Positions 12,953-13,723 of a stretch of DNA of 24,000 bases are shown in pieces; position 1 is the first letter of the stretch, and every line of letters begins with the position of its first letter. Origin of the DNA: Methanocella sp. (lineage in GTDB: Archaea; Halobacteriota; Methanocellia; Methanocellales; Methanocellaceae); contig NZ_DATJPM010000029.1 of NCBI RefSeq assembly GCF_035506375.1, forward strand, positions 6,902 through 30,901. The letters are read 5' to 3'. The notes beneath the pieces are model-generated. The model made no database searches, had not been told where the DNA came from, and saw nothing but the letters and a program-made list of their open reading frames with translations. Both the position numbers and the translations under genes were made by a program.

Positions 12953-13723
12953 ATGGAAGAATGGCTTTTGTGGGCGGGCGCGGCGGCGTTCTGTGTCTTT
13001 GCCCTATCGACGCTCCTGCTGAAAAAGGGTAAGATACCATCGTATATTTCCTTCGCCGGCTGCCTGCTCGTCATCGGCGCGCTTTTATTGCGCTGGTATA
13101 CGCTGGGCCGGCCCCCGTGGGCGACTCTCTACGAGACGGCCGCGTTGCTGGCGCTGGCTACGGGCGTCGCTTCCGCTTACTGCTATCGCCTTAAGGAAAC
13201 GCCCGCGTTGTACCTTCCGCTGGCCGCCGTGGCCATCGTATTGCTGGTATTTTCAGCCATGTCCTGGGAAGCCAACCCGTCGCTCTCGCCGGCGCTTGAG
13301 AGCGGCTGGCTGCTCATCCACGTGCCCGTCGTCATCCTGGCGTACGCCGCCTTATCCGTAGCGTCCATCGCCTCCGGCGCCCTCATCGCGCTGAAAGCAC
13401 TGGGCAGGGGCGACGATAGAACAATAAAAAGGCTCGACTCGATCGCTTACAATCTAATTATCGCGGGGCTGGCATTGCTTGTACTGGGCATCGTCATGGG
13501 CGCAATGTGGGCGAAAGCGGCCTGGGGCGCCTACTGGTCATGGGACCCCAAGGAGACCTGGTCGCTCATCACGGCCTTAGTCTATGCGGCTTACCCTCTC
13601 GCCCGGCGGGCGGGCATGAAGCCCGAGGACTCGGCGTTCATCGCGCTACTGGGGCTCCTGGCGATACTTTTCACTTACCTGGGCGTATCCTACCTGATAC
13701 CGGGCCTGCACAGCTACGCTTAA
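12953..13723 (+). CDS. ccsA: CcsA/ResC/CcmC-family heme-handling (cytochrome c assembly) membrane protein with WWD domain
   Basis: - Start is moved to the ATG at 12953 (MEEWLLWAG). The track ORF begins at a non-ATG codon at 12899.
- It is a polytopic membrane protein.
- The motif [21 protein letters not shown] (nt 13508-13555 for W...E) matches the W-rich WGxxWxWDPKE heme-binding WWD signature.
- Conserved His candidates are in LLIHVPV and in the C-terminal GLHSYA. Confidence 0.8.
   Translation: [256 protein letters not shown]

Follow-up and report, generated by a model that had tools for sequence, protein, structure and literature searches.

A gene within a 24,000-nucleotide stretch of archaeal DNA (Methanocella sp., assembly GCF_035506375.1, contig NZ_DATJPM010000029.1, positions 6,902 to 30,901 of the forward strand), termed here the window, encodes a CcsA-like member of the WWD class of haem-handling membrane proteins. 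The protein and its archaeal relatives retain the haem site at the outer membrane face that is known from cytochrome c maturation System II, but have lost the histidine that relays haem through the transmembrane (TM) segments. This clade-wide loss is a new observation. The gene is divergent from an operon for an energy-coupling factor (ECF) transporter, and two genes nearby encode proteins with conserved CXXCH motifs. We favour the reading that the CcsA-like protein is a stand-alone, channel-less cytochrome c synthase, derived from System II, that acts on the neighbouring CXXCH proteins, possibly with scavenged haem. Our confidence in this reading stands at about even.

An outer haem site without the transmembrane histidine

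The reading frame runs from an ATG at 12953 to the stop at 13723 on the forward strand, giving 256 amino acids (aa). A longer version starting at a TTG upstream (12899) was rejected, since relatives all begin at MEEW or MxxEQW. The protein matches Pfam family PF01578 over the whole domain (130.7 bits, E 7.4e-38; cutoff 29.9), and its best NCBIfam match is the CcsA-type model TIGR03144 (182.5 bits; equivalog cutoff 187.6). Models for CcmC and CcmF/NrfE give only 29-35 bits (TIGR01191, the CcmC model, gives 32.7 against a cutoff of 186). Alignment with solved structures equates the protein with the CcsA half of Helicobacter hepaticus CcsBA (7s9y, residues 671-900; E 1.4e-26). Eight TM helices are predicted from hydropathy and charge, with both termini, the WWD loop and both outer histidines outside. 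An earlier interpretation made from the letters of the window (the sequence-only reading) judged the protein shorter than a typical ResC. This judgement does not hold, because the TIGR03144 model has 252 positions and the ResB-linked bacterial CcsA proteins sampled are mostly 254-311 aa.

The near-consensus WWD motif reported in the sequence-only reading was readily located (Table 1), and the flanking histidines that it proposed, in LLIHVPV and GLHSYA, align with the outer-face ligands of CcsBA: H123 with H761 (P-His1) and H253 with H897 (P-His2). H123 and H253 are invariant in all 98 aligned homologues, as are W186, W191, W195, W197, D198 and W203. Both histidines are likewise invariant in 150/150 top representatives.

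In CcsBA, haem moves from a TM site, to which CcsB and CcsA contribute one histidine each, to the outer WWD/P-His site, and mutation of the TM histidines abolishes function. Besides the second TM histidine, CcsB supplies a beta cap. At the position of the histidine contributed by CcsA (H858), the window protein carries Leu216, and the YLHxR of CcsBA has become YPLAR. The 98-sequence alignment has His in this column in 77/78 bacterial homologues versus 0/20 archaeal ones, and a conserved Trp located eight residues earlier is replaced in all 20 archaeal sequences. Inspection of the archaeal TM segments revealed no conserved His, Cys or Met that could compensate.

A search of 1.84 billion representative proteins with a profile built from these archaeal sequences showed the clade to be isolated, with two representatives scoring 378 and 366 bits and the next match scoring 205 bits. 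The column corresponding to H858 is His in 142 of the 150 top representatives; the eight exceptions are four archaeal and four scattered bacterial sequences. Non-archaeal CcsA-family representatives that have no aligned His in this column are P0393, P0427, P0440 and P0443.

The residues proposed to build the CXXCH pockets of CcsBA all lie in its CcsA part (PMC10663686), so a synthase consisting of CcsA only is mechanistically conceivable. Seven of these residues are kept in the window protein: W828, A829, W833, D840, K842, E843 and V889 correspond to W186, A187, W191, D198, K200, E201 and V245, respectively.

The CcsA-like reading frame is intact at every archaeal locus. Among 25 archaeal sequences, 41 columns are invariant, and these include every catalytic residue. 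Ratios of nonsynonymous to synonymous substitution rates (dN/dS) fall between 0.10 and 0.26 for all pairs, indicating purifying selection. The nearest named relatives of the protein are from Methanocella spp. (47-61% identity, with neighbouring genes reaching 74%), in agreement with the guess of the sequence-only reading that the DNA might come from Methanocellales. Neighbouring genes of the window are similarly near to Methanocella conradii (61-74% amino-acid identity) and to the uncultured lineage L089 (87% for SRP54 and 80% for HflX), and the source of the window is an uncultured member of the Methanocellaceae. The identical protein is encoded on an ENA metagenome contig of 90.6 kb. In RefSeq, the M. 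conradii orthologue is already named "cytochrome c biogenesis protein CcsA".

Genomic neighbourhood and candidate cytochromes

Divergent pairing with the ECF operon, which the sequence-only reading had described for the window, is found in six of nine independent Methanocellales loci. Every locus that bears the cluster (the window, L004, L005, L085, L087 and L088) has the CcsA-like gene divergently adjacent to it. A ten-gene block is syntenic in Methanocella arvoryzae (L004), M. conradii (L088), a Methanocellaceae metagenome genome (L005) and L085, and a frameshifted version of it occurs in L087. There, on a 1-Mb long-read contig, the ECF genes beside the CcsA-like gene (60-3470) are split into several frames, which could be assembly indels or real pseudogenes; six-frame translation shows the CcsA-like reading frame to be intact over 257 aa. 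Twelve contigs are common to the match lists of the CcsA-like family and of the 288-aa CXXCH family described below. The divergent spacer is AT-rich and 90 nucleotides (nt) long, as had been stated, and its TATA-like runs may act as promoters. The window contains no Rfam match and no tRNAs.

In three further loci, the CcsA-like gene has different neighbours. TatD directly adjoins it in L086 (9066-10774) and L090 (8993-10774), where the 10-kb block is missing. In L089 (7131-10771), TatD, followed by the PBP_like_2 solute-binding and kinase genes, adjoins it, and the rest of the block is missing. Downstream synteny is kept in all three. The block is thus present or absent as a polymorphism within the Methanocellaceae. 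The cluster-less lineages and the conserved ECF pairing are newly observed here, as is the contrast with ResB-linked and HemA-linked homologues presented below.

Both CXXCH proteins noted in the sequence-only reading exist, and both motifs are conserved. The first is a 288-aa protein encoded in the ECF operon. Among 5.8 billion proteins, only 61 clusters belong to its family; they are all Methanocella-like, and none falls below 49% identity. CxxCH is kept in 58 of 59 family sequences, the sole exception resembling a frameshift. C37, C40, H41 and H44 are invariant in 57 sequences, and the two intervening residues vary (KQ, DQ, SE, GD and others). An AlphaFold2 (AF2) model (pLDDT 85) shows an N-terminal TM helix, a low-confidence CXXCH loop and two beta-rich domains. 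By Foldseek, these domains match SoxC and SorA, which are sulfite-oxidase-family molybdenum cofactor (Moco) proteins, and the pterin-binding PruR (probability 1.0, TM-score 0.55-0.59). The protein has no Cys outside CXXCH and therefore no Moco ligand.

The second is an HdrD-like protein encoded on the opposite strand. Its full-length form occurs only in Methanocella-like lineages, and the N-terminal domain is missing from the ~300-aa homologues of Methanobacterium and other organisms. All 38 full-length orthologues keep C38-H39-S-C41-H42 and H50 (numbered from the 3990 start). Four TM helices are seen in the AF2 model, and the loop that carries CXXCH is the first on the outer side. Foldseek ranks the membrane-bound CCG protein EtfD first (9ojn, E 1e-11) and HdrB next, and the overall architecture resembles that of mycobacterial EtfD. 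Methanocella reportedly possess HdrD without HdrE. The presence of a second conserved CXXCH in an EtfD/HdrD-like membrane protein is a new observation.

In both proteins, the CXXCH motif sits just after the first TM helix and is followed by a conserved His. Because of this placement, both motifs are predicted to face outward. Orthologues of the 288-aa protein (LRC329 and Mtc_0081) were previously listed as monohaem cytochrome c "cluster 47" (Kletzin et al. 2015, PMC4429474). What is already known consists of the RefSeq annotation as CcsA and of the lone maturation protein and the monohaem candidate, which appear in one 2015 sentence and a supplementary table. The key anomaly is the loss of the TM histidine, which the sequence-only reading overlooked and the 2015 survey did not describe.

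A scan of genome contigs, dominated by the universal pattern WGAYWSWD, returned one archaeal and 79 bacterial loci; the latter, with their flanks, were used as a comparison set. ResB (PF05140, 157-288 bits) adjoins ~40 of the 79 bacterial homologues, compared with none of the nine archaeal loci. A further ~33 of the 79 are placed between SirC and HemA (SirC - CcsA-like - HemA), and CcsBA fusions account for four. The statement that no ResB/CcsB or Ccm gene lies in the 24 kb is borne out: Pfam yields no match to ResB or Ccm among the 20 main open reading frames (ORFs) of the window, and a ResB hidden Markov model (HMM) built here (E <= 10) gives no match in 143 kb of window and archaeal loci versus 46 in the bacterial loci. 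ResB, Ccm, HemA and SirC genes were not found in ~40 kb of the window's own contig, nor were HemA or SirC homologues in the window and archaeal loci.

Published surveys are in line with these results, and with the supposition of the sequence-only reading that the lineage is cytochrome-free. A BLASTP survey reported no System II-V proteins in Archaea and assigned "only one maturation protein" to Methanocella (Kletzin et al. 2015, PMC4429474). In a survey of 326 genomes, CcmCF, CcdA and AhbABCD were present in 0/4 Methanocellales genomes, and HemBCD, SirA and SirC were present (PMC8351635). A full-text literature search for locus tags Mtc_0078-0087 and for LRC329 yielded no paper, and an eLife 2022 paper on archaeal Ccm mentions neither System II nor Methanocellales.

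The minus-strand operon is ordered as follows: S-component, 145-aa lipoprotein, EcfA-A', EcfT, 311-aa lipoprotein, 288-aa CXXCH protein and phosphatase-family lipoprotein. The HdrD-like and kinase-fold genes are convergent with it. An iterated profile detects six copies of a ~100-aa SUOX-fold module in the operon (6062-12862), one of which is fused to the S-component. These modules, of the sulfite-oxidase fold but with no Moco cysteine, are similar to the pterin-binding PruR. The operon, with its outer phosphodiesterase-family lipoprotein and the kinase, has the appearance of a system for salvaging a phosphorylated cofactor of the pterin type. Because the modules resemble pterin binders, we leave the ECF substrate unassigned. 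The TM region of the S-component contains a conserved His in GLHI[FL]W (4/4 sequences), and nothing ties this residue to haem.

The 8-nt overlap between the end of the HdrD-like gene and the start of the kinase-fold gene (5398-5405) suggests translational coupling. The kinase-fold gene is retained without the HdrD-like gene in L085 and L089. A PBP_like_2 solute-binding gene (2907-3920, minus strand) lies beside TatD, with no cognate permease or ATPase nearby; M. arvoryzae has it beside the block as well, and it persists in L089. Two predicted exported proteins (471-1982, plus strand; 19699-20313, minus strand) have long Pro-Thr-rich repeats (PTPTPTP...) and no Pfam match, and may be cell-surface proteins.

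Table 1. Features of the CcsA-like gene and its neighbourhood in the window
Feature	Position	Strand	Basis or remark
HdrD/TfrB-like CCG protein	3942..5405	+	PF02754; gene-caller start 3990; lineage-specific N-terminal 4-TM domain
CHSCH of HdrD-like protein	4101-4115	+	First outer loop
APH/Bud32-like kinase-fold protein	5398..6078	+	Start overlaps HdrD-like stop
Lipoprotein with alkaline-phosphatase-superfamily (Phosphodiest) domain, last operon gene	6062..7168	-	Syntenic in relatives
288-aa membrane-anchored candidate monohaem cytochrome c	7169..8035	-	N-terminal TM helix, CKQCH, conserved H44, two SUOX/PruR-like modules
CKQCH of 288-aa protein	7913-7927	-	CXXCH motif
311-aa lipoprotein, two SUOX/PruR-like modules	8042..8977	-	Module profile
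ECF T-component (CbiQ family)	9068..9877	-	PF02361, 100.9 bits
Fused ECF ATPase EcfA-A'	9874..11385	-	TIGR04521, 383.8 bits
145-aa lipoprotein, one SUOX/PruR-like module	11390..11827	-	Module profile; absent in M. arvoryzae
ECF S-component (YkoE-like) with one extra TM helix and outer SUOX/PruR-like module	11837..12862	-	PF09819; PDB 5edl YkoE, E 5.8e-5
Divergent intergenic spacer	12863..12952	.	90 nt, 34% GC versus 57% for the window; TATA-like runs toward both genes
CcsA-type WWD haem-handling protein	12953..13723	+	256 aa; PF01578, TIGR03144; aligns with CcsBA 7s9y residues 671-900
H123, equivalent of outer-face ligand P-His1 (H761 of H. hepaticus CcsBA)	13319..13321	+	In LLIHVPV; 7s9y alignment
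WWD motif, outer-face haem-binding loop	13508..13570	+	Residues 186-206
Leu216 at position of CcsA-borne TM haem His (H858 of H. hepaticus CcsBA)	13598..13600	+	7s9y alignment
H253, equivalent of outer-face ligand P-His2 (H897)	13709..13711	+	In GLHSYA; 7s9y alignment

A proposed synthase and its alternatives

Building on the observed homology, residue pattern, synteny, motif conservation and purifying selection, we infer haem binding, lyase activity, clients and a source of haem. The protein would be a System II derivative that has been cut down to its outer catalytic site, that is, the WWD loop and two outer histidines. It would hold haem at the outer membrane face and attach it to the 288-aa and HdrD-like proteins through their CXXCH cysteines. 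Because the TM haem histidine is gone and no CcsB was found, the canonical CcsBA route, which starts in the cytoplasm and reaches the WWD site by way of the TM-His site, would be closed to haem. Joint loss of both halves of the TM haem site is coherent. Haem might enter laterally or via a core channel, as is debated for CcmC, or it might come from outside the cell. The outside source is attractive because protohaem synthesis is reported absent in Methanocellales. As precedents, CcmC is a WWD protein that lacks TM histidines and still loads haem at the outer site, and an ECF-type haem importer is known in Staphylococcus lugdunensis (PMC7299338).

A broader proposal can be made more tentatively, and we consider it doubtful as a whole. 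Methanocellales might make c-type cytochromes by means of a one-protein, channel-less System II derivative that loads external haem at its WWD site. The products would form a redox module at the outer face, in which a monohaem protein resembling pterin binders is wired, via an HdrD/EtfD-like protein bearing haem c, to thiol/disulfide chemistry in the cytoplasm. This module would be tied genetically to the ECF importer.

Several points weigh against the synthase reading. To our knowledge, neither haem nor cytochrome c has been reported in Methanocella, and we know of no CcsA that functions without CcsB. Both TM histidines are required in all characterised CcsBA proteins. The match to the NCBIfam CcsA model falls slightly under its equivalog cutoff (182.5 versus 187.6), and the archaeal clade departs from the proposed CXXCH pocket in two places, with the Pro of LMPVL unconserved and N890 replaced by Ser. 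The genome-wide absence of CcsB and of haem synthesis is taken from the literature, the searches made here having covered the loci and the contig. The 326-genome survey detected haem c proteins in 0/4 Methanocellales genomes by its own screen (PMC8351635).

The cluster-less loci add to these points. L086, L089 and L090 retain an intact CcsA-like gene without an adjacent ECF/cytochrome cluster, and no exported CXXCH proteins were found within 10 kb on either side. The gene is nevertheless under purifying selection in this clade (L086 and L090 are 84% identical, with dN/dS 0.16). Because the gene is kept under selection without the cluster, it has, or also has, a role independent of these neighbours, unless its clients lie elsewhere in the three genomes. 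The suggestion in the sequence-only reading of a minimal or non-canonical cytochrome c or haem-trafficking system is therefore a fair one, but the link to the two CXXCH proteins is not obligatory.

The main rival explanation is that the protein handles haem, but mainly in a capacity other than that of a lyase. It would serve as an outer-face receptor or chaperone for scavenging, import, hand-off to the ECF transporter or detoxification, in organisms that lack protohaem synthesis. The purifying selection in lineages without the CXXCH cluster fits such a role, as does the fact that the outer haem site is the only one retained. AhbABCD is reported absent (PMC8351635), yet some Methanocellales encode haem catalases. 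In L090, which belongs to a lineage without the cytochrome cluster, a gene for a large-subunit haem catalase (3531-5609, minus strand) is located 4.4 kb from the CcsA-like gene; its product belongs to the haem b enzymes, and the order is reported to be without protohaem synthesis. The S. lugdunensis importer is also a precedent for ECF-mediated uptake of haem (PMC7299338). On the other hand, the S-component of the window is YkoE-like, and the outer modules resemble pterin binders rather than haem binders. The proposed CXXCH-pocket residues are mostly kept, and strict adjacency wherever CXXCH proteins occur suggests that these proteins are the clients. No WWD protein is known in haem import. 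Overall, we rate a mainly non-lyase role as rather unlikely.

A second rival explanation holds that the protein is an ordinary System II CcsA, with a divergent, unrecognised CcsB and a haem pathway encoded elsewhere in the genome, and that a few cytochromes c are made. TIGR03144 is the best family match, and the RefSeq name of the M. conradii orthologue agrees with this explanation. ResB is poorly conserved, the published absence is based on a single BLASTP query (PMC4429474), and our searches had the scope given above. However, the TM histidine, which all CcsBA and 77/78 bacterial homologues possess, has been lost with the preceding Trp in 20/20 archaeal sequences. ResB is immediately adjacent in 40/79 bacterial loci and in 0/9 archaeal loci, and AhbABCD is missing in 4/4 surveyed Methanocellales genomes (PMC8351635). 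An ordinary CcsA is improbable.

A HemX-type identity, under which the protein would regulate tetrapyrrole synthesis from the membrane by controlling glutamyl-tRNA reductase and would have no relation to cytochromes c, is similarly improbable. HemX demonstrates that the lack of CcsB, which the sequence-only reading had pointed out, is not diagnostic by itself, since HemX is a known PF01578 class without CcsB (PMC5801465). It has eight TM helices and outer termini, and functions in Staphylococcus aureus, which has no c-type cytochromes (PMC5801465). Among the closest bacterial homologues, 33 of 79 are in the SirC - CcsA-like - HemA arrangement. Methanogens need tight control of tetrapyrrole flux. 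However, hemX adjoins gtrR in 94% of genomes (PMC5801465), and the archaeal loci have no HemA or SirC. In a neighbour-joining tree, the HemA-linked proteins form a clade of their own (33 sequences), outside of which the archaeal clade (20 sequences) falls. Every HemA-linked protein retains the TM histidine, which is missing from the archaeal sequences. A HemX role would also leave the conserved pairing with CXXCH proteins unexplained. HemX was rejected as the main explanation because hemA adjacency, tree and histidine pattern are all contrary to it.

Finally, the patchy neighbourhood and the loss of both CcsB and the TM histidine might indicate a decaying, functionless remnant of a System II acquired from bacteria, but intact ORFs at every locus, the 41 invariant columns and the low dN/dS, including 0.16 within the cluster-less clade, make this very improbable, and it was rejected as the main explanation on the selection evidence.

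The division of methanogens into cytochrome-bearing and cytochrome-free groups underpins models of energy conservation, and Methanocellales are major methane producers in rice fields. If the synthase reading is true, even one or two monohaem cytochromes c in Methanocellales would revise this division. The protein would represent a natural minimal cytochrome c synthase, consisting of CcsA alone and lacking a TM haem relay, and it would inform the question of the path by which CcmC-type proteins receive haem at the outer WWD site. It would also exemplify cofactor scavenging that feeds covalent attachment of haem. The HdrD-like protein, if its outer motif does carry haem c, would be a candidate transmembrane electron route in an order implicated in syntrophy. 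Should the gene instead encode a haem scavenger or regulator, the known roles of WWD proteins would still be widened.

Comparison with known systems

The closest resemblance is to CcsA/ResC of System II (CcsBA; 7s9y and 7s9z). The fold and family (PF01578), the WWD loop, P-His1 and P-His2 are the same, and the window protein shares the 8-TM topology, the size of the CcsA core and most of the proposed CXXCH-pocket residues. Candidate exported CXXCH substrates, whose motifs are predicted to face outward, are encoded in the same genome. In contrast to CcsA/ResC, neither the CcsA-borne TM histidine nor the Trp before it is present in the window protein, and because no CcsB/ResB lies nearby, the second TM histidine and the beta cap are also missing. 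The host is reported to lack haem synthesis, and the protein belongs to an isolated archaeal clade.

CcmC of System I likewise combines WWD and two outer histidines with an absence of TM histidines, a resemblance of mechanism rather than of membership. CcmC loads haem at its outer site by a debated route beside an ATP-binding cassette (ABC)-type ATPase complex, and the window gene is also located beside an ABC-type system. This system is an ECF importer, however, and not CcmAB. The sequences are distant (32.7 versus 186 for TIGR01191), and CcmE, CcmD, CcmA, CcmB and CcmF are unreported in the order (PMC4429474, PMC8351635).

HemX resembles the window protein in being a PF01578 protein without CcsB, of similar size and topology, and in occurring in an organism that is considered to lack c-type cytochromes. 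Unlike HemX and the class found between SirC and HemA, the window protein has no hemA/gtrR adjacency and no TM histidine, is placed in a separate clade, and is paired with CXXCH proteins. Bacterial genes of that class are of deltaproteobacterial and Geobacter type (L007, 9316-12173; L054; and ~31 other loci). Their products group in a single clade, and none of the four histidines, the TM one among them, has been lost.

With regard to "cluster 47" of Kletzin et al. (LRC329 and Mtc_0081), the 288-aa protein of the window is an orthologue. Beyond that survey, the present analysis describes the maturation gene, the loss of the TM histidine from its product, its syntenic association with the ECF operon, the HdrD-like CXXCH protein and the cluster-less lineages.

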